A stretch of DNA of 64,000 bases from a bacterium (GTDB taxonomy: Bacteria > CLD3 > SB21), in contig JAIBAF010000002.1 of NCBI GenBank assembly GCA_019695335.1, positions 64,474 to 128,473 on the forward strand. The letters run 5' to 3'. Numbering within the stretch: position 1 is the first letter of the stretch; each line of letters opens with the position of its first letter. The translations under genes and the position numbers were made by a program. Shown here piece after piece: positions 12,464 through 29,017 of the stretch. The notes under the pieces are model-generated. The model made no database searches, was not told the DNA's origin, and was given only the letters and a program-made list of their open reading frames with translations.

Positions 12464-14770
12464 ATGCGATTCTACCTTGCTATGAGAATCCATTGGTTTT
12501 TGCTATACCTGCCGGTTTTGATACAAGCGCAGGAGTTGCTTGTTCCCGACGGGCATATCGCCCCACTCACACGCATCGTACTGACACCCGATGAAAAATA
12601 TTTTGTAACCTTAAGTACGGATGAAACCGCCCGACTTTGGGACCTTGCAACAGGGGCGTTTATCCGAATCTATGACGATGCCAGTGGCTCCATATGTATC
12701 ACGCCCAATGGAAAATTTCTGGTCACAGGAAGTCCATATATTTTCAAACCTGACAGCACAATTCGGGTTCGCCGCATTGACAATGGCCAGATCGTACGTC
12801 AAATCAAAGGGCAAAACGTCATTGGCTTAAGCGAGGATGGCCTTAAAATGTTGTTTTATGATTGTATTGGCCGGAAAATGGCCATCAAACTTTCCGGGCT
12901 ACTCGTCGGACAACCAATCGTCTTGTTTACAATTGATTCAGCAACCGCATTGGCGGTTTCGAAAGATTTGTCATTACTCGCGGCCGGGTTTGAAAACGGG
13001 GAAATAGCAATTTATGAAACTAAAACCGGTAATTTAAAAGCAGTCTTCCATGAGCATGCAGAGGAAATTACAAAACTCAATTTCACCGATGATCAGAAAT
13101 ATCTTATTTCCGGCGGCGGCGATCGATTTATTAAAATTTTCGATTTGAATAATGGAAGTGTTCGTTCAGTATGGGCTAATTTTAACAAAGCGCTGGCGAT
13201 TGATCCGCAACAGCAATATGTTTTATCGTCCAGCTTCGATAATACTTTGGAGATGTTTGATTTTAAAGACGGCAACTGGATTCGCCTGATCGATCACAAT
13301 GCGTATTCGATCGCCGACATTGCGCTCACGCAAAACGGTGAACTGCTGATCGAAGCCTGTACCGATAAAAAAGTAAAGATCATTAATCTCAAAACACAAG
13401 AAGTTGTACAGGAAATCGGCGCACAAAGTCTGTTTGTTTCCCATCTTGCTGTCAGCGGAGACGACCGCTATCTCATTGCTTCGAGTTATGACAACCTGAT
13501 TCGCGTGTGGGATCTGAAAACCGGCGAATTGTCTAAGACTATTCCGTCGCAAGGCGTGATGCAAACTTATCTGAATGATTCGCTTGATCTGATCACATCC
13601 ATCAGCGCGGGGCCATCGGCGGAAATAAAAAAATTTTCGACAGGCGAAGAAATAAAAATGTTTGCCAATCATGAATTTTTATGTTTTGCGATCGCGTTCG
13701 ATGCGCGGCAAACGCGCGTGGCCACGGGCGGATACGACCGGAAAATTCATGTGTGGTCATTCCCGGAAAGTCGTTTCGAACAAACTTTTTTGGGTCATTC
13801 GGGTAATATCATGGCTTTGTGTTTTTCAAAGGACGGACGTTATCTTGCGTCATCGGCTTTCGACAAAACATTACGTGTTTGGGATTTAGAAACCGGTAAA
13901 GCAAAGTATGTTTTTAATAACGGTCTGATCAACCAAATGATTTTAAAAAATGATAGTTTGCTTTTCGGAGCCGGACAAGATGGAGCTATTTCTGTCTGGA
14001 ATTTTTCAGACGGCACGTTGTTACGAAAAATCAAAGCGCATGATCGCCCGATCGCCAGCATTGCACTATATGGTAATGTACTTGCATCGGCGAGTGAAGA
14101 TCATACCATACGGTTGTGGAATTGTGAAAATGGAAAATTGCTTCAGACGCTCGAAGGCCATACGGCGATGTTAAATTATGTTGTATTTACCCATGACGGT
14201 AAGCGTCTGATTTCTGCCGCTCATGACGGTGCGATCAAAATCTGGGACGTTGCGACGGGTAAACTGATAGCAACGATGATTGGGTTCCGTAACGGTGAAT
14301 GGATTACGTGTGCCGAAAACGGTAATTACGTCGCGTCAAAAAACGGCGATGCTTACGTTCACTGGCGCGTGGATAATGAAGTTTTTAGTCTGAAACAATT
14401 TTCTGAAATTCATAAAAACCGCGAAAGTGTTGCGAATATACTTCAATCGACGGTTTACAACGAGTCGAAATTTCAATTCAGCCTCCCGCCGCACGTTGAA
14501 ATTATAAGGCCTTACAGCCAACCGTCCATTAATCAGGGCGAATTGAAACTGGAGATCGCCGCAAAGGGTCGCAATGAAGATCTGATTTTTGAAGTGTACC
14601 TCAACGATGCACTTGTACTCACCAAAAAAGAATTAAAGGTTAGCGAGTTGATAACGCACATGAACGTTAAGTTGATAGCAGGAAATAACCGGATTACGGT
14701 GATTGCGCAGAATGGAAGGGGAATTAAAAGCAGTGAATCGAAGATGTATGTTTATTACAACGGATGGTGA
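12464..14770 (+). CDS. Secreted WD40 beta-propeller repeat protein (768 aa) with N-terminal signal peptide
   Basis: Signal peptide MRIHWFLLYLPVLIQAQE; many WD repeats (LRVWDLETG, IRLWNCENG, IKIWDVATG...); about 100-aa C-terminal non-WD domain. Confidence 0.8.
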   Translation: MRFYLAMRIHWFLLYLPVLIQAQELLVPDGHIAPLTRIVLTPDEKYFVTLSTDETARLWDLATGAFIRIYDDASGSICITPNGKFLVTGSPYIFKPDSTIRVRRIDNGQIVRQIKGQNVIGLSEDGLKMLFYDCIGRKMAIKLSGLLVGQPIVLFTIDSATALAVSKDLSLLAAGFENGEIAIYETKTGNLKAVFHEHAEEITKLNFTDDQKYLISGGGDRFIKIFDLNNGSVRSVWANFNKALAIDPQQQYVLSSSFDNTLEMFDFKDGNWIRLIDHNAYSIADIALTQNGELLIEACTDKKVKIINLKTQEVVQEIGAQSLFVSHLAVSGDDRYLIASSYDNLIRVWDLKTGELSKTIPSQGVMQTYLNDSLDLITSISAGPSAEIKKFSTGEEIKMFANHEFLCFAIAFDARQTRVATGGYDRKIHVWSFPESRFEQTFLGHSGNIMALCFSKDGRYLASSAFDKTLRVWDLETGKAKYVFNNGLINQMILKNDSLLFGAGQDGAISVWNFSDGTLLRKIKAHDRPIASIALYGNVLASASEDHTIRLWNCENGKLLQTLEGHTAMLNYVVFTHDGKRLISAAHDGAIKIWDVATGKLIATMIGFRNGEWITCAENGNYVASKNGDAYVHWRVDNEVFSLKQFSEIHKNRESVANILQSTVYNESKFQFSLPPHVEIIRPYSQPSINQGELKLEIAAKGRNEDLIFEVYLNDALVLTKKELKVSELITHMNVKLIAGNNRITVIAQNGRGIKSSESKMYVYYNGW

Positions 14771-15160
14771 TCAATTCCCGGATTTCGACGATTCCATATC
14801 GTATTCGAATTTTTTACAATAAAAACTGAGCGCTATCTCATCTTTCGTCAGCCCGCATTGATACGTAAAAGCAATTTTATCGTTTTCGACTTTAATGAAT
14901 GATTGCCGGAATTTACAAATCTGGCAATTTTTTTTCTGATTGGTCCGGATCGTATTTAAAGCTGAAGCATTCAACGCCTGCTGGTTTTCCTTGATCGTCG
15001 CTACAGTCGATTCATGCGTTTTGACCATTTCCTTAAAAATTTTATTAACTAATTTCAGATAATGGGCCACATGAATCATCGTTTTTCTAATTCGCATTAA
15101 AACATACAATTGTATGACCAGCAGTAAAGCAAATCCTGCGATAATGAGTATTTCGAGCAT
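14771..15160 (-). CDS. Hypothetical small membrane-anchored protein (N-terminal TM, coiled-coil, C-terminal Cys pairs)
   Basis: ORF track; hydrophobic N-terminus; CQIC...YQCG...YCKK. Confidence 0.35.
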   Translation of the reverse strand: MLEILIIAGFALLLVIQLYVLMRIRKTMIHVAHYLKLVNKIFKEMVKTHESTVATIKENQQALNASALNTIRTNQKKNCQICKFRQSFIKVENDKIAFTYQCGLTKDEIALSFYCKKFEYDMESSKSGN

Positions 15161-15481
15161 ATATTATAAAAGAAATTTATTTAATAATTACGTAAAAGTA
15201 GCGCAAAAAGAGATTAAAAGCAATTCCATTAATTTTATGGAAAAAATATCATTTTGAGTCTTATAGGTGAAAAGAAGTGAAAAATAAAATAACAATTTTT
15301 TACGCGCGTTAATTCAATAAAGACAGTTTGTTATGTTTTCTAGGGGTGAAATTTAATAATGTCCGATTTTTCTTATTGCATGAGATATTTCAGAATTTGT
15401 AATATACAAAGCTTTTCTTTGAGGGATTTCCCAATTTTCTCCCTTCTTTTCATTTCATAACAAATAATTTTAGGGGGCGTT

Positions 15482-15838
15482 ATGTTTGATTTCAAAGAAT
15501 GTGACGTAAATGAATTGGCAGACAAGCTCAATCTATCGACAAGGCAAATTCAAAGAATTGCATTATCCAGATTCAAAAAGCGACCTCATGCCTTTTTGGA
15601 ATCGTTGCGCCTCCATACGGCAATAAATGCTATTGTACATAGTAAACCTGTGTCGCTTGAAGCTGTAGCAAAATTTGCCGGTTTCAGAACGTACGATGCA
15701 TTTCGAAAATCTTTTCACCGGTGTTTTGGAATCGCCCCGTCAAAATGTAAAATCATTGCAGTTACTGCTCATGATAAATTCCAATTACTCAAGACATGGC
15801 AAAACAAAATCGAAAAGCGTTTTACTTTAAAGGAATAA
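15482..15838 (+). CDS. Small AraC/XylS-type HTH transcriptional regulator (DNA-binding domain only); candidate cluster regulator
   Basis: LADKLNLSTRQIQRI...FLE..RL..A...L......SL..VA...GF.....F.R.F....G..P AraC-type double-HTH pattern; AAGGAG-like RBS (tagggggcgttATG). Confidence 0.6.
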   Translation: MFDFKECDVNELADKLNLSTRQIQRIALSRFKKRPHAFLESLRLHTAINAIVHSKPVSLEAVAKFAGFRTYDAFRKSFHRCFGIAPSKCKIIAVTAHDKFQLLKTWQNKIEKRFTLKE

Positions 15839-15845
15839 GCGTACA

Positions 15846-18737
15846 ATGCAAATTTTTCCAAAAATACTAATGCGAATAGCTGCCGGACCTATCGCCGAAT
15901 TGCAGCAACTCGAAGCGCCGGAAACATTCAAACGAATTAAGCGCAAAATTGAACTCGAGCGACAGTTAGCTTCACAGAAACAATTGGTCTGCGACATGCT
16001 GTTTGAACACATCAAACTGGCATCCAATCAACAACTTTACCAGAAAAATCTGCTTAATTTAAAAAGGGACATTTTTAATCTTCGCAAATTCGATCATCCT
16101 AAAAATCTCGAAATCATAGCTGCGCTCCCGGCGGAACTCCGTAATGCGCTTGCGACTCTGGAGAGTTTGGTCAAAACACGCGATGATTGGTCACAAGCTG
16201 TTGACCGATTGTTTAATTCTGAATTGAATCAGGCGCACTCTGTTCTAAAAAATTTGGCTCGAAACCCATCTTTGCAAAAAGGCCTCGTTTTATCTTCGCA
16301 ATCACTTTTACAAAATGTTAACGAATTTATTGCCCGCACTGAAATGCCATCCCGCCGCGCTTTTCAAACTATCGAATCGCTGATGAAATATCTTTCACGC
16401 ACGTACGCCAAAACTTCTCCTTTCAGTACATTTACCCATCTTTCATTGGGTAATCTTTCTGACAATCAAAATTCATTCATTGAATTTGCAAGTGACATTA
16501 TCAGTGCATCTCAAAGCCACGTCCGGTTAAATAATTTTTTGTTCCAATATTTACACGGGCTTCTGATCAAGCATCCGGAAATCAGGAAAAAAATATGGCT
16601 TCGCCTGAATCCTACTTTGATGAAGGATGGTACCGATTACCGTTTTCTTACCAACCATAACAACGTCGAGGCATTTCAAAAAATTGAAGCGATTCCGGTA
16701 ATAGAAGTTTTTGTGTATCTATGCATGCAACGACCGGAAGGAATTTCTTACGAGGACCTCGTTCAAACCATTCTTTTGGAAGAATATATTGATGCACCGG
16801 TTGAAGAAATAGAAGGATTTCTTGACGAATTGATCAATTTCGGTCTGCTGGAATTCGATTTGCGCGTTTCAGGAATCGATCCGGATTGGGACGAGCGTTT
16901 GACCGGGCAATTGCATTTTTTACAAAATCCTTTAGCGATAGAATTAATTTCTTCTTTAAAAAACATCAGAAAAAAAGCTGAAGAATTTGCTCAAACAAAC
17001 GATGTCAAACATCGATATGAATTACTTAAAAGGACGCACGAGGAATTCAAAAATATCTGCAAGAAAATTTATATCTCCGCCGGTTTGGATGAAAAAGCTT
17101 TTGAACCGGTAACGCCTGCTCCATCTTCAAAACAAGAAAAAGAAAAAACAGAGAACGGCGACAATGAACTTCAGGAAAAAAATGAAAACGGCGAAGAGGT
17201 TTTTCAACGGGTAATTTCTACGGTTTTCCGATTCAAACCCGAACAAATGTATTACGAGGACTCCAGCTTAATACCGAAATTTTCGGTTCGAATGGATGTT
17301 ATTGCCGATAAAATTCAATCTTTAAATGTTTTGCTTGAAACTTTGTCACTTTTTGAAGGCCGTATGGATGAGTTTGATATCATGACCAACTACTTTGCAA
17401 AAAAATACGGCGATGAAGCATCGGTCAATCTGATTACTTTCTATGAGGATTTTTATCGCGATTACAAAAAACCCGAGGCCGAGCGTCAAGATCGGTTAAA
17501 GAACCAACATTACCGGCAATTTTTAAAGGATCAAACTATAACTCCCAAAGAAGAAAAGACAAAGGAAGAAATAAAAGAGGAAAAAATTGATGATGTTTCT
17601 CCGGCGATGATTATTTCGGAAATCGATGAACGAAACAAACTTCGCAAATTATGGCAGGAAGCTTTAGGACAACGGCTGCTCAAAACGCAAGGATTGTCGG
17701 ATGAACATAAAATTACGGTTGAAGACGTCCGTGAAATCAATCGTCAATTCAATTTAATCAGTCAAGATAATCAGGTGTCTTTGGGCGCTTTTCTGCAATG
17801 GTTCGAAGATCGGGGACAATTTAAAGCGGTTGTCAATGGCACTTTTCCGGGTTATGGGAAAATGTTCAGCCGTTTTTTACACGTTTTCGAACCGGAAAAC
17901 ACGCAAATGTTGCGGGAATGGAATCAGCATGTGATTCCGGAAAATGCAATATTTCTCGAAGACTGTGACGGATCTTACTTCAACGCCAATCTCCATCCGC
18001 CTTTGATGCCATTCGAAGTTCGAATTCCGGGCGGCCACAATAGCTTGAAAACCGATTTACAAATTCCTGTCACGGATTTGGCTGTAAGAATCGAAAGCCG
18101 GCAATTGATTCTTTATCACCAACCGAGCGGGAAACGTGTTTTTATATTTGATCTCGGCTTTCAAGGTCACGGCGGACGCTCACCCCTTTTTCAGCTTTTG
18201 GAAAAATTTACGGCGGCAAAATATTGGTCGGTTTATCCGGTTAACCAATCGATCAATCTTGCCGTTCAAAGCGCGCCTGAAAATAAAGAACAAAAAAACG
18301 TACAAATATCGCCTAGAATTATTTTTGAAGACTGGCTCGTTTTGCAAAGAAAGTCATGGTCCATTGACTGTAGCCAATTGCCGGTCAAAAAAAACGATGA
18401 AACGGAGGCCGCTTATTTTGTGAGAGCCAATGAATGGCGGATCGCTCTGGATATTCCTGACGAGGTTTTTGTGTTTGTCGCTTCCCGTGGAGGCCAGGAA
18501 ATGCTGAAACCGGAACAGGCACGTAAACTCCGCCGTGATGATTACAAACCGCAATACATTGCGTTCAAAAACCCGTTTTTGGTCCGGTTATTTAATAAAT
18601 GCGCGGAGAAAGCTCCTAATCGTTTGAAAATCGAAGAAATGCTTCCCGCATCCGATCAGTTATTGTCCATCGGCGATAAAAAACATGTTTCGGAATCTGT
18701 CATTCAATGGTATAAATTTAATGGCACAAATTTTTAA
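15846..18737 (+). CDS. Large protein (963 aa), proposed lanthipeptide dehydratase N-terminal (glutamylation) half of a split LanB
   Basis: Size and position immediately upstream of a separately encoded LanB C-terminal (SpaB_C) domain, in a cluster with LanC, LanT and precursors. I do not recognise specific motifs myself, so this is assigned mainly by context. Confidence 0.55.
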   Translation: MQIFPKILMRIAAGPIAELQQLEAPETFKRIKRKIELERQLASQKQLVCDMLFEHIKLASNQQLYQKNLLNLKRDIFNLRKFDHPKNLEIIAALPAELRNALATLESLVKTRDDWSQAVDRLFNSELNQAHSVLKNLARNPSLQKGLVLSSQSLLQNVNEFIARTEMPSRRAFQTIESLMKYLSRTYAKTSPFSTFTHLSLGNLSDNQNSFIEFASDIISASQSHVRLNNFLFQYLHGLLIKHPEIRKKIWLRLNPTLMKDGTDYRFLTNHNNVEAFQKIEAIPVIEVFVYLCMQRPEGISYEDLVQTILLEEYIDAPVEEIEGFLDELINFGLLEFDLRVSGIDPDWDERLTGQLHFLQNPLAIELISSLKNIRKKAEEFAQTNDVKHRYELLKRTHEEFKNICKKIYISAGLDEKAFEPVTPAPSSKQEKEKTENGDNELQEKNENGEEVFQRVISTVFRFKPEQMYYEDSSLIPKFSVRMDVIADKIQSLNVLLETLSLFEGRMDEFDIMTNYFAKKYGDEASVNLITFYEDFYRDYKKPEAERQDRLKNQHYRQFLKDQTITPKEEKTKEEIKEEKIDDVSPAMIISEIDERNKLRKLWQEALGQRLLKTQGLSDEHKITVEDVREINRQFNLISQDNQVSLGAFLQWFEDRGQFKAVVNGTFPGYGKMFSRFLHVFEPENTQMLREWNQHVIPENAIFLEDCDGSYFNANLHPPLMPFEVRIPGGHNSLKTDLQIPVTDLAVRIESRQLILYHQPSGKRVFIFDLGFQGHGGRSPLFQLLEKFTAAKYWSVYPVNQSINLAVQSAPENKEQKNVQISPRIIFEDWLVLQRKSWSIDCSQLPVKKNDETEAAYFVRANEWRIALDIPDEVFVFVASRGGQEMLKPEQARKLRRDDYKPQYIAFKNPFLVRLFNKCAEKAPNRLKIEEMLPASDQLLSIGDKKHVSESVIQWYKFNGTNF

Positions 18738-18750
18738 ACTAAAAAAACCG

Positions 18751-18773
18751 ACTCTGAACTTGTTTCAGAGTCT
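18751..18773 (+). terminator. Perfect hairpin (GACTCTGAA-cttgt-TTCAGAGTC) between the two LanB halves; possible attenuator or partial terminator
   Basis: 9-bp perfect inverted repeat 14 nt after the stop codon; weak T-run after it. Confidence 0.4.
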
Positions 18774-18884
18774 CTAATTCTTCAGAATGGTATTGCACAG
18801 ACTCCTTCCGCCTCAGTGAATCGGAGTGATGAAAGTGTCTGCTATTCTGCAACCAAATAATTTTCAATTCTTAATTTTTAATTT

Positions 18885-19889
18885 ATGAAAAATGTCTGGA
18901 CGTCTGCTTATTTCTTTTACGCCGAGCCTTGGGAAAATTTTCTGTCGAAAACAGTCCACCCTTTTATCCAAAATGTAATGAAAGAAAAATTGGCCGATCA
19001 GTTTTTCTTTATCCGTTATTGGGAAAAAGGCCCGCATATTCGGTTGCGCTTCAAAGGCGAAGATAATATTATCGAGAAGAAGCTTAAACCTTATTTAACG
19101 GATTATTTTACCGATTTTTTTAAAGCACGGCCATCTCAACGCTATGAGCCGGAATGGATAAAACAATTGCCGCCCGAAAAAGCATGGTTTCCCAATAACA
19201 GCATTCAATGGGTGGATTACGAACCGGAAATCGAGCGCTATAGCGGGCAAGCAGGAATACTCATTGCCGAAAAGCAATTCGAAATATCGTCAAAAGTGGT
19301 ATTGTCCATTATCGAAGAAAACCGATCATGGAGTTATGACAGCGCTTTGGGCGCCGCAGTGCAATTGCATTTGGGTTTTGCTTATGCGATGGGTATGAGT
19401 CTTTATGAGGCGAAATATTTTTTTTCAGTGATTGCAGAGGGATGGATGTCCAGTGCGGTTGGACACAGTCTTTCGGCAGAAAATTTTCAGGAAAAAAAGA
19501 ATGAAATTTTGAAGGTTTTTGAGGAACATTTTAATAAGCAGCAATCGGAGCTTATACCGTTTCAGCAAACTTTGTGGGAAGCGCTCATCGATCATGCCGA
19601 TTTCGAGCAGGCATGGCTGAATGACTGGCTGCACGGTATGAAGGGTATTCTGACTGAATTGAACGGACTTTATTCAAAAAATAAATTGATCTTTCCAAAA
19701 AGTTTTAGAATCAATGACCAAATTGATGTTCCATCGAAACGCCAGTTATTGTGGTCGATCTGGACGAGTTATATTCACATGACCAATAACCGCTTGGGAA
19801 TCCAAAATCAGGATGAAGCTTTTTTGGGATATTTACTCAAAAGGAGTTTGGAAATTTGGCTGAGCGGTGACACGCACTGCCTGTGGTAA
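18885..19889 (+). CDS. Lanthipeptide dehydratase C-terminal elimination domain (SpaB_C / thiopeptide-type bacteriocin biosynthesis domain), stand-alone
   Basis: FFFIRYWEKGPHIRLRFKG and YEPEIERYSGQAG match the FFIRY..PHIRLRI and Y..EVERYGG motifs I recall from the NisB elimination domain. Confidence 0.8.
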   Translation: MKNVWTSAYFFYAEPWENFLSKTVHPFIQNVMKEKLADQFFFIRYWEKGPHIRLRFKGEDNIIEKKLKPYLTDYFTDFFKARPSQRYEPEWIKQLPPEKAWFPNNSIQWVDYEPEIERYSGQAGILIAEKQFEISSKVVLSIIEENRSWSYDSALGAAVQLHLGFAYAMGMSLYEAKYFFSVIAEGWMSSAVGHSLSAENFQEKKNEILKVFEEHFNKQQSELIPFQQTLWEALIDHADFEQAWLNDWLHGMKGILTELNGLYSKNKLIFPKSFRINDQIDVPSKRQLLWSIWTSYIHMTNNRLGIQNQDEAFLGYLLKRSLEIWLSGDTHCLW

Positions 19890-19899
19890 GAAAAAACAC

Positions 19900-20125
19900 A
19901 ACAAAACTAAAAGGAGAGTGATGTCCCTTGAAGGTGTGACGTGATTTTAGCAGTTTAACAAATAACTAATTGTTTAACAATGGGGAAAATTATAATGGGA
20001 AGTTTCGTATTACAGTGATCGAGCCAGCAAGCATTGATCATTTATTAGTAATATGAACTTCCCGATATTAAGCTAATGAAAGCCAATAACATTAGCAATT
20101 CCCTGAATCTAAGGAGATTTCAGTC
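19900..20125 (+). promoter_or_regulatory. Conserved precursor-upstream element, copy 1: SD plus 7-codon mini-ORF (19921..19944, MSLEGVT), TATAAT box (19991..19996), 17/16-bp inverted repeat (19997..20063) 62 nt before the precursor ATG
   Basis: About 225 nt repeated with high identity upstream of all three precursor genes; the inverted repeat is GGGAAGTTTCGTATTAC ... GTAATATGAACTTCCC. Confidence 0.6.
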
Positions 20126-20428
20126 ATGGGAAAGAAATTAAAACTCAAACTCGAAGACTTGAAAGTCCAGAGCTTCGTAACGGCAGCCAAATTCATTGTC
20201 GGTGGTTTATTGCCGACCCATCCGGATGCATGCGGTACGAATACTTGCCAGCAATATACTGAGGTTGGTTGTGGTCCTACAATTGGATGTGAGTCAGCCC
20301 AATGCGGCGATACTGTGGGGTGTACCTATGGCGGTGAATATACTCTGTGTGGTTCTATTTGCCAAAATACAGGGAATTGTACAACCGAAGCAACTGCACA
20401 CACAGAATGTTCATGGCAGCAATGTTAA
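20126..20428 (+). CDS. RiPP precursor peptide 1 (100 aa): leader MGKKLKLKLEDLKVQSFVTAAKFIVGG, then a 73-aa core with 11 Cys and 16 Ser/Thr
   Basis: AAGGAG RBS 9 nt upstream; leader shared with two paralogs; GG cleavage motif; next to LanB, LanC and LanT. Confidence 0.8.
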   Translation: MGKKLKLKLEDLKVQSFVTAAKFIVGGLLPTHPDACGTNTCQQYTEVGCGPTIGCESAQCGDTVGCTYGGEYTLCGSICQNTGNCTTEATAHTECSWQQC

Positions 20429-20435
20429 CCAATCT

Positions 20436-20470
20436 GCGAGGTGTGGTAGTACTGCACCTCGCTATTTTTT
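20436..20470 (+). terminator. Rho-independent terminator (GCGAGGTG-loop-CACCTCGC followed by TATTTTTT)
   Basis: 8-bp GC-rich stem plus T-tract 8 nt after the precursor stop. Confidence 0.6.
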
Positions 20471-20509
20471 AACCCATTGGTGTTTCTGTAATACACAGGC
20501 AATAAAGAA

Positions 20510-22459
20510 ATGAAGTTATTAAATTTTCTATTTCTAGCGACTTTACTAATTGGAAGCGATATTGTTGCGCAAAAAAGCAATAATGAGAATTCTAACTACA
20601 AAAAAGTAATCGAACAATTAGATAGTTGTTTTCAAAAAAAATGCCTATCAGTAGACGAGCTAAAAAATTATGCTGCCGCGCATATTCATGAATATAAAAT
20701 CAAACTCATCACTTGGCGCCTTTTCGATAGACTGAGCGATGGGCATTTAAAAAAAGCCGAAAAAGCACTGGATATGGCCTTTCAGATGGATTTAAAAGAT
20801 AATGAGGCTTTGTTTCTTAAGGCCATTCTTGAAAAAGAAAAAGGAAATAATAATGCAGCAGAAATATTTAACAAGTTGATTGACAATGTCAAGAACACTT
20901 ACGGGTTCAAAAAGCCGATAAATGAACTTGCAGAAATATTTTTTGAAGAAGATCGCTATAAGGAGCTAATCGAGCTATTATCAAAATACAAACATGACTC
21001 TGAAAGCTTTGAAATTTTTTTCAATTCTTTGATAGCTGATGGAGATGAAATAAAAACAACAAAAGTTTTTTACGAGATTTTAGAAAACGCCCGAGATTCA
21101 TTATTCATAAATAGTTTTTACATGCAAGCAGAACCCATTGCTGAAAAAGATGAAACTGTAGCTTGGGCAGCTTTGAAATTGCCAAATGCAAAAATTTCTT
21201 TTTTAAAAAAATTCTGGCAAAAGCGAAATCCGACGTTAACTCGCGACAGTAATCCGCGGCTTGTCGAACACTATAAAAGGCTGCAGTACGCTCGACAATT
21301 TTATTATAAATTAGGAAATCCAGGTTATGACGACAGAGGATTGATCTATATTAGACGTGGGAAACCCGACCGATGGTATGTTAATGACGAATTAACAAAT
21401 CTCTCTTGGGTATATGAGGATGATAAAAACCCTGCACATTTCGATTTTGTAAGTTCGGAATTTGGAGAGTATAAATTGGGTAATATCGGTGGTAGTGTTG
21501 TAGATCGAGCGCATCTGCATCCTTTTTATCAAAAAATGGCACAAAAATATTTAATGTGGAATTTGGCAGCATCAAGAGACAAAAAGCGGCTAATGGAAGA
21601 AATCAATCAGCAAATGTCTGCCGAACTTATTCGGATGGAATTTTATGAATCAAAGAAGATATCTTATATTTTTAGTCCCAATACGCCGCATCTTCCTGTC
21701 AATATACGTTTTGCTTCATTTAAGAAAACCATCGATACAACGACACTTGATATTTCTATCGCAATTCCTGTTTCAGAGTTAATATTTCATCAGAATCAAT
21801 CGGAAATAACAGTGCGAATCAAAGCGTTTGACAGCGATTTTGTTGAACAAGAAACTCAAGGTAAAAATTTGACTTTAAGTTCACAATTTAAAAATGAGAT
21901 GCATCTTGTTAGTGCATTTTCGCTGAAATTAAAGCCCAATCGTTATCGTATCGCTTTAGAGGTTGCTAATAATAATGAGGAGAAGCAAGGGATTTATTAT
22001 TTCGATTTAGACGTACGTGATTTTCAAAGCAGAGAATTGATGGTGAGTGACATCGATTGGGCTACGCGAATAGAAAATTTAGACTATTACAGTGGCATAG
22101 TTAAAGAGCATGCAAATGTGAAGATAATTCCATATCCGTTTACCAAGTTCCAACATCATCAGACTCTGTCTTTGTATTACGAAATTTACAACCTGACTTT
22201 AGACAATAATGGCCATTCGCAATACGAAGTAAGCTACAGCATCAACCCCAAGAAGAATTTTTTTGGAAAATTATTCGGTGCTATCAAAAAATCAGTAAAC
22301 ATTACAACTCCCAAGCAAGGGTCCTCGATATTCGAATTTGAATATATCACTTTGGATTTAAGCAACCTAGAAAAAGGCGAGGCTGATTTCATATTGCGAG
22401 TTTACGACAAAATCTCAAAACAGCAGATAGATCATAGGGAAACTGTATTTATTGAGTAA
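20510..22459 (+). CDS. Secreted TPR-like / GWxTD-like domain protein (649 aa), paralog of 29069..31219
   Basis: Signal peptide MKLLNFLFLATLLIGSDIVAQ; central FWQKRNP...YKRLQYARQFYY...PGYDDRGLIYIRRGKPD resembles the GWxTD-domain signature as I remember it, which is uncertain. Confidence 0.5.
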   Translation: MKLLNFLFLATLLIGSDIVAQKSNNENSNYKKVIEQLDSCFQKKCLSVDELKNYAAAHIHEYKIKLITWRLFDRLSDGHLKKAEKALDMAFQMDLKDNEALFLKAILEKEKGNNNAAEIFNKLIDNVKNTYGFKKPINELAEIFFEEDRYKELIELLSKYKHDSESFEIFFNSLIADGDEIKTTKVFYEILENARDSLFINSFYMQAEPIAEKDETVAWAALKLPNAKISFLKKFWQKRNPTLTRDSNPRLVEHYKRLQYARQFYYKLGNPGYDDRGLIYIRRGKPDRWYVNDELTNLSWVYEDDKNPAHFDFVSSEFGEYKLGNIGGSVVDRAHLHPFYQKMAQKYLMWNLAASRDKKRLMEEINQQMSAELIRMEFYESKKISYIFSPNTPHLPVNIRFASFKKTIDTTTLDISIAIPVSELIFHQNQSEITVRIKAFDSDFVEQETQGKNLTLSSQFKNEMHLVSAFSLKLKPNRYRIALEVANNNEEKQGIYYFDLDVRDFQSRELMVSDIDWATRIENLDYYSGIVKEHANVKIIPYPFTKFQHHQTLSLYYEIYNLTLDNNGHSQYEVSYSINPKKNFFGKLFGAIKKSVNITTPKQGSSIFEFEYITLDLSNLEKGEADFILRVYDKISKQQIDHRETVFIE

Positions 22460-22573
22460 ATAATTATCCTATACCGGAAGGCAAGACGACATTAGAAGTC
22501 ACAGTCAAAGACTTGACTTCGAATCAGGAGACGGTATCAAGGCTTGGATTGAATATTAGCAATGACGAAAAAT

Positions 22574-22596
22574 AATGGTTCTGATAAAGAACCATT
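22574..22596 (+). terminator. Hairpin AATGGTTCT-gataa-AGAACCATT downstream of the GWxTD-like gene (no T-tract)
   Basis: 9-bp perfect inverted repeat. Confidence 0.3.
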
Positions 22597-22624
22597 ACAA
22601 CGACAAATGCAAAACTAGTTATAG

Positions 22625-22845
22625 AAAGGAGGATGATGCGTTTTGAAGGTGTAAAGTGATTCACGCAGTTTTAGCTAAAGTAACAATTTTTTTTAACAGC
22701 AGGAAAAATATAAATGGGAAGTTACGTATTACGGTGATCGAGCCAGCAAGCATTGATCATTTATTAGTAATACGAACTCCCCATTGTGAAGCTAATGAAA
22801 ACCAATAACATTAGCAATTCCTGAAAATTCAAGGAGATTTCAGTC
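22625..22845 (+). promoter_or_regulatory. Conserved precursor-upstream element, copy 2: mini-ORF 22633..22659 (MMRFEGVK) and inverted repeat 22716..22782
   Basis: Same architecture and spacing as copy 1 (63 nt from inverted repeat to ATG); TATAAAT box immediately before the repeat. Confidence 0.6.
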
Positions 22846-23130
22846 ATGGGTAAGAAATTAAAACTCAAACTCGAAGACTTGAAAGTACAGAGCTTTGTGA
22901 CGGTAGCCAAGAAACGGATCATGGGAGGCGCTGAGCAGACATTGACCGGTTGTCCTGACCCAACCAATCCTAATCTTGGATGCACTGAGGTTGGGTGCGA
23001 AACGGCGCAAGTCAATTGTACAGGTCCAACTTATACAATTGATTTATGGTGCCAGACAGGTTTGTGTACATACCAGCCATGTCCAAGTCAAGGTTCAGAC
23101 TGCACGATTGATTTAGCCTGTACCTGGTAA
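22846..23130 (+). CDS. RiPP precursor peptide 2 (94 aa): leader MGKKLKLKLEDLKVQSFVTVAKKRIMGG, then a 66-aa core with 9 Cys
   Basis: Shared leader and GG site; the core N-terminus TLTGCPDPTNPNLGCTEVGC is shared with precursor 3. Confidence 0.8.
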   Translation: MGKKLKLKLEDLKVQSFVTVAKKRIMGGAEQTLTGCPDPTNPNLGCTEVGCETAQVNCTGPTYTIDLWCQTGLCTYQPCPSQGSDCTIDLACTW

Positions 23131-23146
23131 ACGGTAATTACAAAAA

Positions 23147-23193
23147 GGAAAGCCTGTGTTCTGAACAGTTGAATTTAAGAGCCGGGCTTTCCC
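23147..23193 (+). terminator. Terminator-like structure (GGAAAGCC...GGCTTTCC with a nested TGTTC-t-GAACA), then an A/T-rich run
   Basis: Inverted repeats read from the sequence 16 nt after the precursor stop; long loop, so low confidence. Confidence 0.35.
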
Positions 23194-23294
23194 ATTATTT
23201 AAAATAAATGAAAAATAATACAATTTGGAACCCGTCGTATTCATATTTTTAGAGTAAACTCAAAGATTGATAAACGGAAGGTCTGTAAAAAAAA

Positions 23295-24269
23295 ATGATT
23301 CAATGGAATGAAAACAGACATTTACTTTTTTTATGTATTCTGTTTTTTTCATGTAGTGAAAAAAACATTTTACAATTAAAAATTGAAAAAATTGGTTATT
23401 GGAAGTTAAGCCCAAAGACTGTTGTCAAATTAAGTTATGATGCAAAACAAATTGCCGTCATTGACAGTGGCCAACTAGTATTGGTTGATATTCATGAGTT
23501 CAAAAATCAAACTCGGTTTATAGATGAATTAGCCATCATAGATGTCTGTTTTTCAAAAGATAACAAATATTTAATAACCCGGGATTCGGTTAGATTTAAT
23601 GTATTCGATAGAGAGCATTTAACGCTGATACATCGAATTGATGTAGATTCTAATAAGCCAGCGTCGAATTTTAGTAATGTAGAAGCTTTTTCAGATACAA
23701 CCATTTATACCTTAGTCGAAAAATTTGAATCGCCTGTTTATCGTAAACGAAGCGACAGGTTTTCATTATCTAAAATTGAGGTTTATGATGTGTTTCATAA
23801 AAAGACTATCGCTGTAATTTCCGACTCAACCGATCGAATTGTTTCGGTTAAAGCAAATTTTAAAACCGGAAAAGCGGTTACACTTTCAAACAACAATCAA
23901 ATCAAAATATGGAACTTTAAAACCAATCAATTGGAAGCAGTGATATCAGAAAACATGTTTTCAATGTATAGACCCATAATCAGCCGCTTGGGGAAGTATA
24001 TCGCCTATTTCGATATTAATAATAATATCACAATTTGGGATATTTCATTGAAAACAAAATTATCCTCATTCCATTTTCAAGAACCCTTCGTGTATAAAAT
24101 TAGTGATAACATTTTTCTTACGGTGACAAGAGGGAGTATTGGCGTGCATGAGATTGCTAAGTCTGAGTTTGATGTGATTGAACTGACCAGCGTTTCTGAA
24201 GGAGGAAATATTTTTTTACAATTTTCGAATAGCACTGTGGAGGCTATGAAAATTTCAAACCAATTTTAA
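23295..24269 (+). CDS. Hypothetical lipoprotein (324 aa), possibly a beta-propeller-like repeat protein
   Basis: Lipobox-like LCILFFSCSEKN; repetitive beta-rich sequence; occupies the slot after precursor 2. Confidence 0.45.
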   Translation: MIQWNENRHLLFLCILFFSCSEKNILQLKIEKIGYWKLSPKTVVKLSYDAKQIAVIDSGQLVLVDIHEFKNQTRFIDELAIIDVCFSKDNKYLITRDSVRFNVFDREHLTLIHRIDVDSNKPASNFSNVEAFSDTTIYTLVEKFESPVYRKRSDRFSLSKIEVYDVFHKKTIAVISDSTDRIVSVKANFKTGKAVTLSNNNQIKIWNFKTNQLEAVISENMFSMYRPIISRLGKYIAYFDINNNITIWDISLKTKLSSFHFQEPFVYKISDNIFLTVTRGSIGVHEIAKSEFDVIELTSVSEGGNIFLQFSNSTVEAMKISNQF

Positions 24270-24287
24270 AATATTAGAGATTTTTTA

Positions 24288-26171
24288 ATGAATCAAACCA
24301 GTAATAACAGTTCTTTAGAACTGGCGAGATTAAGTCGTTCTATTCTAGAAGCAGCGCAAGATGATATTTTCGGTATTAGCTGGAAGACGATGGCTTTACA
24401 AAACAGGATTATCAGTTGGAACACATCTGAAAGTTTATATTCAGGCACCGCGGGCATTGCACTTTTTTTATTAAACTATTATCGGCACTCCGGAAATCAG
24501 GAAAGCATTGAAGCTGTACGTAATGCGGCGAAATGGATCGAGCATCATTGCAAAGAATTGGACAGTGATTATTACGCCTTTTTTACCGGAAGAATGGGCA
24601 TCCCATATTTTTTATTAGAATTGCATAAAGAAATACGCGATGAGAGCTTATTACATTCTGCAATTTCAATTGCCAAAAAAAGCAAAGTAATGTTGGCTTC
24701 AAACCAACATGTATGCGATTTGATCAATGGATTTTCGGGAACCCTGTTAGGGTTATTGCACGTGTATCATGCCACACGTTCAGATGATATCGAAGATTTA
24801 GCCGACAGATTTGCTGAGAAATTGATCGAAGAGTGTTGGGTTGCCGAACATGGAGTCTATTGGGACCGTTCAGAACAAACGATCCGAGGGCTTTGTGGAT
24901 TTTCGCATGGCGCGGCCGGAATCGGTTTCGTTTTTCTTGAACTCGGGCGTTATTTTCAAAACGAAGCTTTTTATTGGTTAGCGAGAGAGGCGTTTAGATA
25001 TGAGAATTGTTATTTCAATGCGCAATGGAACAACTGGCCGGATTTTCGCAAAGGGATTTGGTTTGAAAAAGACGCCGAAGAATTTGAAAAGGCGTACAAA
25101 AGTAATAATATCGATTTTTTTACAACGCCTAGGGATTTCAGCGCCTGGTGCCATGGAGCAGCCGGTATCGGTTTATCGCGTTTGCATGCATGGAAAGTTT
25201 TGGGAGACAAAGAATATTTTCATGATTATGAGAATGCTGTAAAGAAAGTTCGTTCAGTAGATTTAGTATCGCGGCCTCAACGTTCTTTTACTTTGTGTCA
25301 TGGATCGGGCGGCAATGCCGATCTTCTGATTGAAGCCTATCGTTTAACCGGAAATGAGTCATACCTGCAGGATGCTTATCGAATTTCAGAACTGGCGCTT
25401 CAATCAAGGCAGGAAATAGGTAAGTACATCTCAGGGTTTGCTGATGCAGGCAAAGAAGAGGATTTAAGCCTTTTTATGGGGAATGCCGGTATCGGTTATT
25501 TTTATTTAAGATTATTAAATCCGGAGATCAAGTCAATTTTAATGCCCGTTGTTGAAAGTAATGGAGTCAAGCCCAATCCAAAATATAAAACGCTCAACAT
25601 TTCTTTATCGCAATTACAAAAGCGAATGTGCGCGAAAATTTATCGGCGAACGACTTTTTTTATTGAACAATCGTTACCGGAATTTTTCAAAGAAAACAGT
25701 TCTTTGAATTCATGCTTACAGGATATAGAAAAGTTTTCTGTCCAAAATACAGACTCACGGTTAGATGAAGTCTTCAAAATTGAGAAAACAGCCAGAGAAT
25801 TGAATTTAGCTGTCGAAAGTTTTGCTTTACTTGAAGCTGAGAATCAATACCGACCAAAAAATTATGACGGAGATACCAAGTTAAAACTATCGCCAAGAGT
25901 GAGGTTGCTTACTACCAATTCAAATGAATCATCAGAAAAATTCATTGTACTTTATGTTACAATAGAAGGCGTTAAAGAAACGCTTGTTGAACAATTCACT
26001 GGATTAGTTTTATCGGCTTTCAGCGAGCCTTGTTCATCGAAAGCCGCTTTAACTAAAATTTTCGATATGATTGAATCGGAAAACCATCACGAACTCAAAC
26101 AGATCGTGATTCAGCAGATCAATGACGCTTTTTTAGCGGGGATATTAATTATTGCTGACACACATTTTTAA
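24288..26171 (+). CDS. LanC-like lanthipeptide cyclase with a ~210-aa C-terminal extension of unknown function
   Basis: Repeated GxAGI motifs (SGTAGIALFLL, HGAAGIGFVFL, GNAGIGYFYL); zinc-ligand motifs AWCHGAAGIG and LCHGSGGNADLL; 627 aa versus about 410 for canonical LanC. Confidence 0.8.
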   Translation: MNQTSNNSSLELARLSRSILEAAQDDIFGISWKTMALQNRIISWNTSESLYSGTAGIALFLLNYYRHSGNQESIEAVRNAAKWIEHHCKELDSDYYAFFTGRMGIPYFLLELHKEIRDESLLHSAISIAKKSKVMLASNQHVCDLINGFSGTLLGLLHVYHATRSDDIEDLADRFAEKLIEECWVAEHGVYWDRSEQTIRGLCGFSHGAAGIGFVFLELGRYFQNEAFYWLAREAFRYENCYFNAQWNNWPDFRKGIWFEKDAEEFEKAYKSNNIDFFTTPRDFSAWCHGAAGIGLSRLHAWKVLGDKEYFHDYENAVKKVRSVDLVSRPQRSFTLCHGSGGNADLLIEAYRLTGNESYLQDAYRISELALQSRQEIGKYISGFADAGKEEDLSLFMGNAGIGYFYLRLLNPEIKSILMPVVESNGVKPNPKYKTLNISLSQLQKRMCAKIYRRTTFFIEQSLPEFFKENSSLNSCLQDIEKFSVQNTDSRLDEVFKIEKTARELNLAVESFALLEAENQYRPKNYDGDTKLKLSPRVRLLTTNSNESSEKFIVLYVTIEGVKETLVEQFTGLVLSAFSEPCSSKAALTKIFDMIESENHHELKQIVIQQINDAFLAGILIIADTHF

Positions 26172-26177
26172 ATTTAC

Positions 26178-28388
26178 ATGAGCAAACATACAATGATCTT
26201 TAACTTCCCATTTTCAAAACAGCTAGACCGTATGGATTGCGGGCCTACGTGTCTTCGCATGATCGCACGGCACTACGGCAAATCTTACCCCATTCAATAT
26301 CTTCGTGAAAAATGCTTTATTACCAGAGAAGGCTCTTCGCTCCTTGGCATCAGCGATGCAGCCGAATCGATCGGTTTTCGGACGCTATCGATCAAAGTGA
26401 ATTATGAAAAATTAGACGATGACGTACCGCTTCCATGTATCGTCCACTGGAACCAAAACCATTTTGTGGTAGTGTACAAGATAAACCGTAACAAAGTTTA
26501 TGTAGCTGATCCGGCTCACGGGCTTTTGAAGTATAAGAAAGAAGAATTTCTTAAAAGCTGGCTCAGTGTAGAATCGAACGGCCGGCAGGAAGGCGTTGCA
26601 CTTGTGTTGGAGCCTTCTCCCGATTTCTATCATGCCGATGAAGGTGTTACTCAAGACCGGACGAAAATGTCTTTTTTATTGACGTATCTCAAACCGTATA
26701 AAAAATTCTTTGTTCAGATATTTCTCAGCATGCTGATCGGCAGCCTTTTAGGCTTGATCTTTCCTTTTTTGACGCAAGCCATCGTCGATTTTGGAATCAA
26801 TAATCAAAACATCGGATTTGTCTATACGATCTTAATCGCACAACTCATGCTTTTCACCGGCCGTACGGCCGTCGAATTTATCCGAAGCTGGATTTTCCTG
26901 CACATTGGAACACGAATCAACGTGACGATCATTTCGGATTTTTTGATCAAACTGATGAAATTGCCGATGCCATTTTTTGACACCAAAATGATCGGCGATT
27001 TATTGCAGCGCATCGGCGATCACACGCGCATCCAGCAGTTTCTTACTTCCACAACCATCAATTCGTTATTTGCCATCATCAATTTGTTGATCTTCGGCTT
27101 GGTGCTGGCCCTCTATAGCTCATACATTTTTGGCGTGTTTTTTATCGCATCGGTTTTATCCACGTCCTGGATACTTGTTTTCATGAAGAAAAGGAAAGAA
27201 ATCGATTATAAACGATTCAATCAATTATCTCAAAATCAAAGCCAGTTGATCCAATTGATCACCGGTATGCAGGAAATCAAGCTCAATGGAGCGGAAAAAC
27301 AAAAGCGATGGAATTGGGAAAATGTCCAGGCAAAGTTATTCAAAATCAGTGTCAGCTCTCTCACTTTAGATCAAACCCAGCAAGCGGGTATGCTCTTTAT
27401 CAATGAAACGAAAAATATTTTCATATCTTTTCTTGCTGCAAAGGAAGTGATCGACGGCAACATGACTTTGGGCATGATGATGGCCGTGCAATATATCATC
27501 GGCCAATTGAACGCTCCTATCGGGCAATTAATCGGATTTGTTCAGACCGCTCAAGACGCCAAAATCAGTCTTGAACGTATGGGCGAGATTCACAACAAAA
27601 AAAACGAAGAAGACCCTGAGACGGCTGGTTTAAATGCGTTACCAACCGCTCGTACCATCAGTGTGAATAACTTGTCTTTTCAATATGAGGGACCGCATTC
27701 GGAATTTGTTCTCAAAGATATTTCATTAGCCGTACCGGAAGGAAAAGTGACGGCGATCGTTGGAACCAGTGGAAGCGGCAAAACGACGCTGATGAAATTA
27801 TTTTTGAAGTTTTACGAGCCCGTTCAGGGGAATATTTTTTTGGGAGGAATTGATTTACAGAAAATAAGCGCCCGGCTTTGGCGCCAGAAATGCGGTGTGG
27901 TCATTCAAGACGGATTTATTTTCTCGGATACGATTGCCAATAATATCGCTCTCGGGCATGAACGCATCGATCGTCAACGCGTGGAGGAAGCGGCTCATAT
28001 TGCCAATATTGACGATTTTATCGAAACGCTGCCTCTGGGTTACAACACAAAAATCGGTTCGGAAGGACACGGTCTAAGCCAGGGACAAAGGCAGCGGATT
28101 CTGATTGCAAGGGCTGTGTACAAAAATCCGGAATTTATCTTTTTTGATGAAGCGACCAGCGCGTTGGATGCTAATAATGAACGAACAATCATCGATAATC
28201 TGCAAAAATTCTTTCAAGGAAAAACCGTTGTGGTGATTGCCCACCGGCTCAGCACGGTCAAGAACGCCGATCAAATTATCGTTTTGGAAAAAGGCCGGTT
28301 GATCGAGTCGGGAAGCCACTCCGAATTGGCCGACATTCGCGGCGCCTATTTTCATCTCGTGAAAAATCAATTGGAATTGGGAAGTTAA
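26178..28388 (+). CDS. Bacteriocin/lanthipeptide ABC exporter with N-terminal C39 peptidase domain (LanT/SunT type)
   Basis: C39 catalytic region MDCGPTCLRMIARHYGK and the HWNQNHFVVVY His; 6-TM domain; Walker A GTSGSGKTT, signature LSQGQRQRILIARA, Walker B IFFDEATSALD. Confidence 0.9.
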   Translation: MSKHTMIFNFPFSKQLDRMDCGPTCLRMIARHYGKSYPIQYLREKCFITREGSSLLGISDAAESIGFRTLSIKVNYEKLDDDVPLPCIVHWNQNHFVVVYKINRNKVYVADPAHGLLKYKKEEFLKSWLSVESNGRQEGVALVLEPSPDFYHADEGVTQDRTKMSFLLTYLKPYKKFFVQIFLSMLIGSLLGLIFPFLTQAIVDFGINNQNIGFVYTILIAQLMLFTGRTAVEFIRSWIFLHIGTRINVTIISDFLIKLMKLPMPFFDTKMIGDLLQRIGDHTRIQQFLTSTTINSLFAIINLLIFGLVLALYSSYIFGVFFIASVLSTSWILVFMKKRKEIDYKRFNQLSQNQSQLIQLITGMQEIKLNGAEKQKRWNWENVQAKLFKISVSSLTLDQTQQAGMLFINETKNIFISFLAAKEVIDGNMTLGMMMAVQYIIGQLNAPIGQLIGFVQTAQDAKISLERMGEIHNKKNEEDPETAGLNALPTARTISVNNLSFQYEGPHSEFVLKDISLAVPEGKVTAIVGTSGSGKTTLMKLFLKFYEPVQGNIFLGGIDLQKISARLWRQKCGVVIQDGFIFSDTIANNIALGHERIDRQRVEEAAHIANIDDFIETLPLGYNTKIGSEGHGLSQGQRQRILIARAVYKNPEFIFFDEATSALDANNERTIIDNLQKFFQGKTVVVIAHRLSTVKNADQIIVLEKGRLIESGSHSELADIRGAYFHLVKNQLELGS

Positions 28389-28467
28389 ACTCGGGTGTTG
28401 AAAATTGAATTTAGTGAGTAAGTGGTATAGTCTTCGTCAGAGCTATTGACGAAGAAAATAAAAAAAC

Positions 28468-28999: not shown

Positions 29000-29017
29000 G
29001 TTGCAAATAACTGATAA

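Follow-up and report, generated by a model that had tools for sequence, protein, structure and literature searches.

Why are the three lanthipeptide precursor genes of one bacterial gene cluster each preceded by the same module of about 215 nucleotides (nt), and does this module work as DNA or as RNA? The question is raised by a 64,000-nt stretch of contig JAIBAF010000002.1 (positions 64,474 to 128,473, forward strand; 41% GC), which we call the window and which holds a class I lanthipeptide cluster. It is chromosomal DNA of a bacterium assembled from a metagenome, on a contig of 130,909 bp with locus tags of the K1X84_ series. Its precursors A (100 aa), B (94 aa) and C (102 aa) are pinensin-family lanthipeptides. 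They scored 33.3, 28.9 and 30.3 bits, respectively, with the NF038180 model (cut-off 24), and they carry the pinensin-type leader, for which the model features are LxLxxLKVxSF and a GG cleavage site. An initial annotation of this DNA had proposed that an inverted repeat in the module was either an operator overlapping a TATAAT promoter or a 5' untranslated region (UTR) hairpin working with a leader-peptide attenuator. We favor another answer, with a probability of roughly 55%: the module would be a conserved, transcribed and structured 5' leader of the precursor mRNAs that acts on the RNA level and controls stability or translation. The pattern of substitution among its copies shows strong purifying selection, and neither a promoter box nor a mini-open reading frame (mini-ORF) is conserved in the sequences compared. 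From these features we infer transcription from upstream, ribosome binding at the 5' block of the module, and an effect on stability or translation.

The repeated module and its relatives

The module is present in exactly three copies in the 64 kb, each between an upstream gene and a precursor. Three diagnostic sub-patterns gave three matches each in the window, compared with 0-0.3 expected by chance, and a repeat finder returned the same three-copy families (Block 1 is its family D4). From 5' to 3', each copy contains Block 1 (AAAGGAG, the tandem start codons RTGRTG and the string TCCCTTGAAGGT), a variable linker, Block 2, a variable spacer, the ribosome-binding site (RBS) and the leader-peptide coding sequence of the precursor, all on the plus strand. 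In copy A, Block 1 (19910-19955) starts with AAAGGAG at 19910-19916 and continues with the tandem starts GTGATG, the mini-ORF, TCCCTTGAAGGT and GCAGTT. It is followed by the linker (19956-19973), in which 3 of 22 alignment columns are invariant and indels occur, and by Block 2 (19974-20110). The two blocks are at 22625-22670 and 22693-22829 in copy B and at 28478-28523 and 28540-28676 in copy C, with AAAGGAG starting at 22625 and 28478, respectively. The RBS of precursor A (20111-20117) precedes the start codon at 20126, and those of precursors B and C are at 22831-22837 and 28680-28684. The AAGGAGA that the initial annotation assigned to every precursor is found before A and B, but before C there is only GGAGA.

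The other landmarks had been described correctly. The mini-ORFs, each closed by a stop codon, are at 19921-19944 (MSLEGVT), 22633-22659 (MMRFEGVK) and 28489-28512 (MSLEGVK). TATAAT is present in copy A and TATAAA in the other two. The inverted repeat GGGAAGTT(T/A)CGTATTAC-N34-GTAATA(T/C)GAACT(T/C)CCC is at 19997-20063, 22716-22782 and 28563-28629, with the TGATCG/TGATCA nested in it, and copy B has one extra T before GGG. The end of the hairpin is 62 nt from the ATG, which agrees with the earlier 61-63 nt. Two features had been overlooked, a second hairpin and a stem that closes around both hairpins.

Three further distinct full copies were recovered from metagenome contigs: L011 (the same as L012 and L013), L019 (the same as L025 and L026) and L027. 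A profile search with the three precursors led to two proteins, P0124 and P0125, then to their contigs and to contigs of neighboring proteins. P0124 and P0125 are longer "precursors" whose N-terminal extension, MNKRIIGNFLKNMEISV, is the translated leader RNA. The relatives share the gene order LanB elimination gene, element, precursor and GWxTD gene, and contig L010 retains just the second hairpin and the RBS region. A covariance model (R1) was built solely from the three window copies, whose Block 2 scored 163, 152.6 and 148.8 bits (A, B and C). This model found the copies of the relatives at 54.7-78.1 bits (E = 1e-10 to 1e-17) and had no other matches in 183 kb of other pinensin loci.

Conservation within the module is mosaic. 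Among the three window copies, invariant columns make up 76% of Block 1 and 14% of the linker, 79-93% of the long-hairpin stems, 100% of the second-hairpin stems and 25% of the ~8 nt before the RBS. The copies can be aligned, as had been claimed, but not along their whole length, the linker and these ~8 nt being the parts that vary. Similarity sets in abruptly at AAAGGAG (0 of 5 columns immediately 5' of it are invariant), continues through the coding sequence of the leader peptide and fades in the core peptides. The 19-residue leader peptide MGKKLKLKLEDLKVQSFVT is identical in all three precursors, and 6 of its 19 third codon positions vary compared with 0 of 38 first and second positions. 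Between B and C, synonymous differences were found in 18 of the 43 codons that specify the same residue.

These figures bear on the possibility that the element has no function and that its similarity was left by a recent duplication or gene conversion of precursor cassettes. The conserved unit does extend into the leader-peptide coding sequence, and segmental duplication does occur. In L019 (1395-1510) and L025 (175-290), a remnant of ~110 nt from the 3' end of the LanB elimination gene precedes the element directly after the LanC gene, at a place where L026 (240-372) has the LanB elimination gene intact (L011, 1060-1174, was compared as well); the cassette was therefore copied along with upstream coding sequence. 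However, the linker, the spacer and the synonymous sites are near-saturated, the paralogous GWxTD genes downstream of A and of C are 31% identical on the protein level, and the same blocks with the same sharp boundaries are kept in a second lineage. The initial annotation had named equal conservation of adjacent neutral sequence as the mark of recent duplication; we found neutral sites strongly diverged beside near-invariant stems, with 93-100% invariance in those of P2 and P3 among the window copies. Because the linker, the synonymous sites and the flanking paralogues have diverged so strongly, the similarity of the modules does not come from recent duplication. The neutral-duplication reading is largely refuted, and we regard an element of no function as extremely unlikely.

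Predicted RNA structure and the operator question

Block 2 is predicted to form three helices, a closing stem P1, a long hairpin P2 and a short hairpin P3. In copy A, P1 pairs 19981-19987 (TGGGGAA) with 20099-20105 (TTCCCTG) and encloses P2 (19997-20063) and P3 (GCTAATG-N11-CATTAGC, 20072-20096); the A-rich junction at 19988-19996 includes the TATAAT (19991-19996). In copy B, CAGGAA (22700-22705) pairs with TTCCTG (22818-22823) around P2 (22716-22782) and P3 (22791-22815). In copy C, CGGGGAA (28547-28553) pairs with TTCCCCG (28665-28671) around P2 (28563-28629), whose tip has a different sequence and is still paired, and P3 (28638-28662). Each of five copies folded alone gave P1/P2/P3 as the minimum free energy (MFE) structure; L027 was aligned to the model and not folded separately. 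The hairpin seen in the initial annotation is therefore present in the MFE structure, inside a larger domain. The z-scores on the plus strand were -6.2, -8.1 and -8.2 for copies A, B and C and -6.2 and -3.4 for the other two, and reverse complements gave -3.1, -4.5 and -2.2. The RNAalifold consensus has the same P1/P2/P3 architecture.

In an alignment of the six copies that was fitted to this model, 93.3% of 240 cells can pair, a value equalled by 0 of 500 shuffles, and the covariation score was matched by 4 of 500 shuffles. In P1, 3 of the 7 pairs have changed on both sides: pair 8-134 is G-C, C-G or U.G, pair 9-133 is A-U, G.U or G-C, and pair 12-130 is A-U or G-C. The P1 of copy B is shifted in register by one (CAGGAA/UUCCUG), and column counts score it as broken. 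P2 and P3 show one-sided changes only, mostly wobble-preserving, with no double changes, and on the plus strand there are 17 G.U cells versus 8 A.C cells. P2, a duplex of ~27 bp in the window copies, spans 67, 67, 67, 64, 65 and 65 nt with indels confined to predicted loops and bulges, and both copy C and the other clade have a tip of different sequence that pairs again. The earlier statement that true compensatory changes are lacking holds for the arms of P2 and P3 but not for P1 and the re-paired tip of copy C, where compensatory change is present. As far as these models go, a conserved RNA structure appears real, with thin support. Because the covarying 5' arm of P1 lies 5' of the supposed -10 box, the box would be inside the transcript, and transcription would start further upstream.

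Could the same sequence be read on the DNA level? TATAAT would then be the -10 box of a promoter for the precursor, the inverted repeat of 17 bp, alone or together with the GATC palindromes, would be an operator, and Block 1 would be an upstream activator site, with a dimeric regulator or the AraC-type protein of the cluster as the putative binder. Both arms of P2 are near-invariant across the clades with no compensatory change, as half-sites would be. An AraC-type gene heads the cluster, and AraC-type genes also adjoin precursors in L001, L014 and L015. Other pinensin precursors have their own promoters within ~100 nt, and no other promoter is evident for copy A. However, there is no -35 element at 16-18 nt from the box. 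A sigma70 scan found no sigma70-like site inside the elements (TTAACA is 11 nt from the box), and the best relaxed match, TTGTTT-15-TATAAT, is in copy A only. The box is replaced in the orthologous copies, where the P1-P2 junction, variable in length, is UAAAAA (L011), AAAAU (L019) or AACAAAAC (L027), with no TATAAT. The outer half-sites are not evenly spaced from copy to copy (67, 64 or 65 nt, a range of 3 bp), the 5' arm has a 1-nt bulge, the mismatches are mostly of the G.T type on one strand, and the complementarity and covariation of P1 have no rationale on the DNA level. These comparisons do not support an operator overlapping a TATAAT promoter, and we consider DNA-level control of this kind unlikely.

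The nature of the AraC-type protein (15482-15838, plus strand; Pfam/NCBIfam) also speaks against it as the dimeric binder of an inverted repeat. It is 118 aa long and consists of the HTH_18 domain alone, compared with 190-257 aa for the AraC-type proteins of related clusters, and it could be a MarA-like monomeric regulator or the product of a truncated gene. MarA/SoxS-type regulators bind an asymmetric site as monomers, and a helix-turn-helix (HTH)-only protein would by analogy be expected to do the same. The two direct repeats TTGCAAGAAATGACA in L015 are probably the AraC box of that cluster; as direct repeats beside TTGACA-N18-TATACT, they are quite different from the element studied here. 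They adjoin the promoter, downstream of an AraC-type gene, at 2820-2930 (580-690 in the equivalent L017), before a precursor with the identical 19-aa leader. Compared with MarA/SoxS/AraC-type boxes and palindromic operators, our element also has an AraC-family gene nearby and an inverted repeat near an AT-rich hexamer, but the hexamer and its spacing are not conserved, a -35 is absent, and the strand-asymmetric wobbles and the covarying outer stem point to RNA. The region upstream of araC-lanB shares one 9-mer with the elements, which is at chance level. The AraC-type gene is preceded by 320 nt free of ORFs (region 15160-15838).

Other promoter types within the element were considered and rejected. 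TTAACA-N11-TATAAT has the wrong spacing, and TTGAAG-N17-CAGTTT in Block 1 has a poor -10 whose A2 L019 does not keep. A sigma54 promoter would need another GG-GC spacing, and the Bacteroidetes-type motif TAnnTTTG is absent from the element.

Block 1 and the proposed leader

The conserved nucleotide string of Block 1 is AAAGGAG(G)-N-TG-R-TG-TCCCTTGAAGGT, with a core, AAAGGAG(G)-N-TGRTGTCCCTTGAAGGT, that L011, L019 and L027 share exactly or almost exactly. Between L011 and L019, 25 nt of Block 1 are identical while ~50 nt on either side differ, and the blocks are set apart by the same variable stretch. When L026 is compared with L019, the edge of the conserved part falls exactly at AAGGAGG. The Shine-Dalgarno (SD) sequence of Block 1, AAAGGAG in the window and AAAGGAGGTG in L011, L019 and L027, lies ~215 nt 5' of the precursor ATG and is complementary over 7-10 nt to the canonical anti-SD, which was assumed here in place of the organism's own 16S sequence. 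SD use is otherwise sparse: about 18 of the 44 long ORFs of the window have even a loose motif, and the precursors and the Block 1 modules have strong ones of the AAGGAG type.

Such a site might serve an upstream ORF (uORF), in that translation of the short Block 1 ORF would control the downstream structure or couple ribosome loading to precursor translation. All copies keep the strong SD and the tandem starts RTGRTG, and the first codons read S-L-E-G in 5 of 6 distinct copies, with R-F-E-G in copy B. However, the ORF has 7-8 codons in the window versus 50 in L011 and 37 in L019 (GTG start, stop lost, the ORF entering the structure), most of the substitutions in copy B alter the amino acid (SL to RF), and the SD-to-start spacing is only 3-5 nt. 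In the window the ORF stops ~35 nt 5' of P1, beyond the reach of a terminating ribosome. In the terminator scan, the interval from Block 1 to the ATG contained no terminator-like site; the sequence after P2, GAUAUUAAGC, has no U-tract, and no terminator/antiterminator pair is seen. Of the proposed 5'-UTR hairpin and leader-peptide attenuator, the hairpin is retained as part of a transcribed structured leader, and the attenuator is not, given the unconserved ORF and the lack of a terminator or U-tract. We consider a uORF device very unlikely. A second mini-ORF, from the ATG in TATAATGGG, was rejected as it is absent in copy C, as was pairing of Block 1 with the precursor RBS or the 5' arm of P2, which involves 4-6 bp only and is unconserved.

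We propose instead that the precursor message would come from a promoter upstream of Block 1 or from cleavage of an operon transcript. From 5' to 3', this RNA would carry Block 1, the unconserved linker, the P1-closed junction with P2 and P3, about 10 variable nt, a strong RBS, the precursor and an intrinsic terminator. Block 1 would present a very strong SD, AAAGGAG(G)(TG), with two start codons in frame directly after it. There, in the manner of a stabilizing SD (STAB-SD), a 30S subunit or ribosome would be retained and may, together with the compact P1-P2-P3 domain, block attack from the 5' end, and the terminator hairpin would guard the 3' end, leaving the message bracketed at both ends. 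The terminator scan placed plus-strand intrinsic terminators after precursor A (20436-20462) and precursor C (29018-29045); after precursor B, a terminator-like hairpin (GGAAAGCC...GGCTTTCC with a T-rich tail, ~23147-23199) was seen by eye and was not flagged by the scan. The outcome would be a stable, highly translated small mRNA and the excess of precursor over enzymes that clusters for peptides that are made by ribosomes and modified after translation (RiPPs) need. RiPP clusters must produce far more precursor than enzyme. All paralogous precursors would obtain the same expression properties from the same leader.

Parts of this scheme are known elsewhere. The STAB-SD of Bacillus thuringiensis cry3A, an SD that lies ~125 nt 5' of the start codon, marks and shields the 5' end of a transcript that is processed from a longer RNA (Agaisse and Lereclus 1996, cited after PMC12970973). 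The element resembles it in having a near-perfect SD far 5' of the real start (~-215 here, ~-125 in cry3A), in serving a gene that needs very high expression, and in its 5' boundary, as the cry3A SD marks a processed stable 5' end and conservation here begins exactly at the SD. It differs in the start codons 3-5 nt after the SD, the conserved 12-nt box and the large three-helix domain, and in its host, a low-SD bacterium that is no Firmicute. In the hbs mRNA of Bacillus subtilis, 5' hairpins and an SD-bound ribosome block RNase J1 after RNase Y cleavage (PMC5737220). Long 5' hairpins, an exceptionally strong SD and a small, highly expressed cistron in an operon are common to both cases, and RNase Y is encoded in the window after the cluster (32720-34363; Pfam/NCBIfam). 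However, the fold and sequence here are unrelated to those of hbs, and the element is repeated before each paralogous cistron. RNase Y processes operon transcripts into segments of different stability, for which cggR-gapA and sae are the paradigms. In the classical lantibiotic operons (nisA, epiA, spaS), a small abundant transcript arises because the structural gene is served by a promoter of its own and by a leaky terminator. An intrinsic terminator after the precursor, enzymes downstream and the need for excess precursor are shared with that layout, but this lineage has a leader of ~215 nt without a recognizable promoter, unlike L015, L018 and L022 with their classical short UTR and sigma70 promoter.

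Several observations weigh against a stabilizing leader. The start codons RTGRTG come 3-5 nt after the SD, unlike in a classical STAB-SD, and the length of the ORF behind them is unconserved; a short or long uORF may really be translated at Block 1. The conserved TCCCTTGAAGGT of Block 1 has no explanation under a leader model. P2 is without compensatory change, its pairs 31-85, 40-77, 41-71 and 42-70 are lost between the clades, and helical sequence is more conserved than loops and junctions. The P2 helix exceeds every loop in conservation, which suggests that a protein recognizes the duplex by its sequence; as a sequence pattern this would also fit recognition of either DNA or RNA. The structure statistics are weak, as they come from six sequences in two shallow clades and a model-fitted alignment. 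P2 is loose in its middle part in L011, and the stability of the complete leader of 229 nt does not exceed that of shuffles (z = -0.45). Upstream of copy A, where the preceding LanB gene has no terminator, a convincing promoter was not found. About 48 nt 5' of Block 1 in copies B and C there are sigma70-like matches (TTGAAT-16-AATAAT and TTGAAT-15-TATAGT), which are no commoner than in shuffled sequence. Finally, no gene for RNase J, the 5'-3' exonuclease that bears on a stabilizer model, was seen within the window.

Homology 5' of Block 1 among A, B and C was not above that of shuffles. At 22549-22598 and 28405-28455, copies B and C share the same -35 (TTGAAT), followed by a 7-9-bp hairpin without a U-tract, and the hairpin of copy B resembles a minus-strand terminator; these shared features may be due to chance. 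That P2 might serve as a substrate of RNase III is plausible in the window copies, with their ~27 bp, but not in L011, in which large internal loops interrupt P2.

If the domain does act on RNA, it could do so as a regulated riboregulator, with Block 2 as an aptamer or protein-binding domain whose ligand state controls RBS access or leader cleavage. The ligand could be a small molecule, the mature peptide, a protein of the cluster or a tRNA. A closed multi-helix junction immediately 5' of the RBS is found in translational riboswitches, the lack of an Rfam match would make this a new class, and in four copies local pairing of the RBS region, or its pairing with sequence 5' of P1, is possible. 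However, J1/2, J2/3, L3 and the P2 tip, where binding pockets usually are, are the least conserved parts and the helices the most; the RBS-sequestering pairings differ in each copy with no common register; and neither a terminator nor a conserved alternative fold was found. The comparison with translational riboswitches and junction-type cis-regulatory RNAs in Rfam is the same: a closing stem around two hairpins directly 5' of the RBS is shared, but here the junctions and loops vary while the helices are conserved, and there is no Rfam match at E <= 1. Regulation of this sort is quite unlikely in our view. A more specific form, in which Block 2 would be a new class of RiPP-precursor riboregulator bound by a component of the cluster and Block 1 its ribosome-loading or stabilizing half, is still more doubtful. 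The component could be the LanB dehydratase, which depends on tRNA, the machinery that binds the leader, the mature peptide or Glu-tRNA, and translation of the precursor or survival of the mRNA would thereby be adjusted to what the modification enzymes can handle.

Other types of element were rejected by eye: an integron attC site (no core sites, no integrase), a miniature inverted-repeat transposable element (MITE) or repetitive extragenic palindrome (REP) (the element is confined to precursors), a retron msr/msd (no reverse transcriptase) and an intrinsic terminator of the upstream gene (no U-tract). At 55859-55976, near the 5' end of an ORF on the minus strand (55766-56323), there is an imperfect inverted repeat; its 3' arm, GGGAAATTTTCTATTAC, is similar to the 5' arm of P2, with 3 mismatches. 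This is probably a chance match.

Cluster context, distribution and significance

The cluster (15482-32517; Pfam and NCBIfam scans) lies on the plus strand, as do all genes listed here. The AraC-type gene is followed by the two parts of LanB, for glutamylation (15846-18737; PF04738) and elimination (18885-19889; PF14028), and by precursor A (20126-20428; NF038180). Further on are a GWxTD protein (20510-22459), precursor B (22846-23130; NF038180), a WD40-like protein (23295-24269), LanC (24288-26171; PF05147), a C39-ABC exporter (26178-28388; PF03412 plus ABC domains), precursor C (28691-28999; NF038180), a GWxTD/TPR protein (29069-31219) and HlyD (31216-32517), those without a model named being Pfam/NCBIfam assignments. 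The split LanB, with its glutamylation and elimination proteins separate, LanC and the C39-ABC exporter are all hallmarks of such clusters; the definition of a split LanB is taken from PMC7268733. The closest LanC homologues are merely 41-46% identical. A GWxTD-domain gene follows the precursor in most such clusters (in the window and also in L010, L011 and L015). Two beta-propeller-type proteins are unusual partners of a lanthipeptide cluster, a 768-aa WD40-repeat protein just 5' of it (12464-14770) and the 324-aa beta-propeller-like protein (23295-24269) between precursor B and LanC.

Public records name two of the three precursors, A included, "pinensin family lanthipeptide". Precursor B is called there as an 83-aa "hypothetical protein" (P0123) from an internal TTG start, so that its 5' end is wrong. 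In related contigs (L010 921-1301, L011 1338-1703 and L019 1682-1957), precursors are called 17 codons too long; the overlong calls begin at an ATG within the P3 loop and run through the RBS, giving MNKRIIGNFLKNMEISV-MGKK... The leader element explains this systematic misannotation, in which start codons are placed inside the leader.

The distribution of the element is narrow. An exact scan of the metagenome contigs for the P3/P1 motif gave 0 matches. Scans of genome and metagenome contigs with the leader peptide returned L001-L006, which have pinensin-type leaders and no element in any, and the contigs of the nearest LanC homologues (L007-L009) have a different leader family and no element. 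L015/L017, L018, L021 and L022, whose leader peptide is identical or near-identical, also lack it and have canonical sigma70 promoters or tandem precursors. Their promoters, with short UTRs, are TTGACA-N18-TATACT in L015 (after the two TTGCAAGAAATGACA repeats), TTGACA-N17-TAGAAT in L018 and TTGACA-N17-TATAAT in L022. Since these loci with the same leader have canonical promoters and short UTRs and no element, the element is a lineage-specific replacement of the usual arrangement. Rfam 15 scans of window positions 15000-35000, L011 and L019 returned nothing at E <= 1, no tRNA-like gene was found with ARAGORN, and searches of the literature on mRNA stabilizers, lantibiotic mRNA processing, pinensin clusters and lantibiotic transcript stability turned up no account of such an element.

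We put the element forward as a candidate for a new RNA motif associated with RiPP precursor genes, with moderate support for its structure and a putative mechanism. Its significance is limited by this narrow distribution, by the thin covariation support and by the tentative nature of the mechanism. Outside the Firmicute model systems, little is known, to our knowledge, of how the ratio of precursor to enzyme is set. If the reading as a transcribed leader is correct, this lineage would have exchanged its relatives' own promoter and short UTR for a leader of ~215 nt before every precursor paralogue. It would be a new, unannotated RNA motif without an Rfam family, combining an upstream ribosome-binding module with a three-helix domain, and a useful building block for expressing such clusters in other hosts. 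It would also add a post-transcriptional layer to the expression of lanthipeptides.

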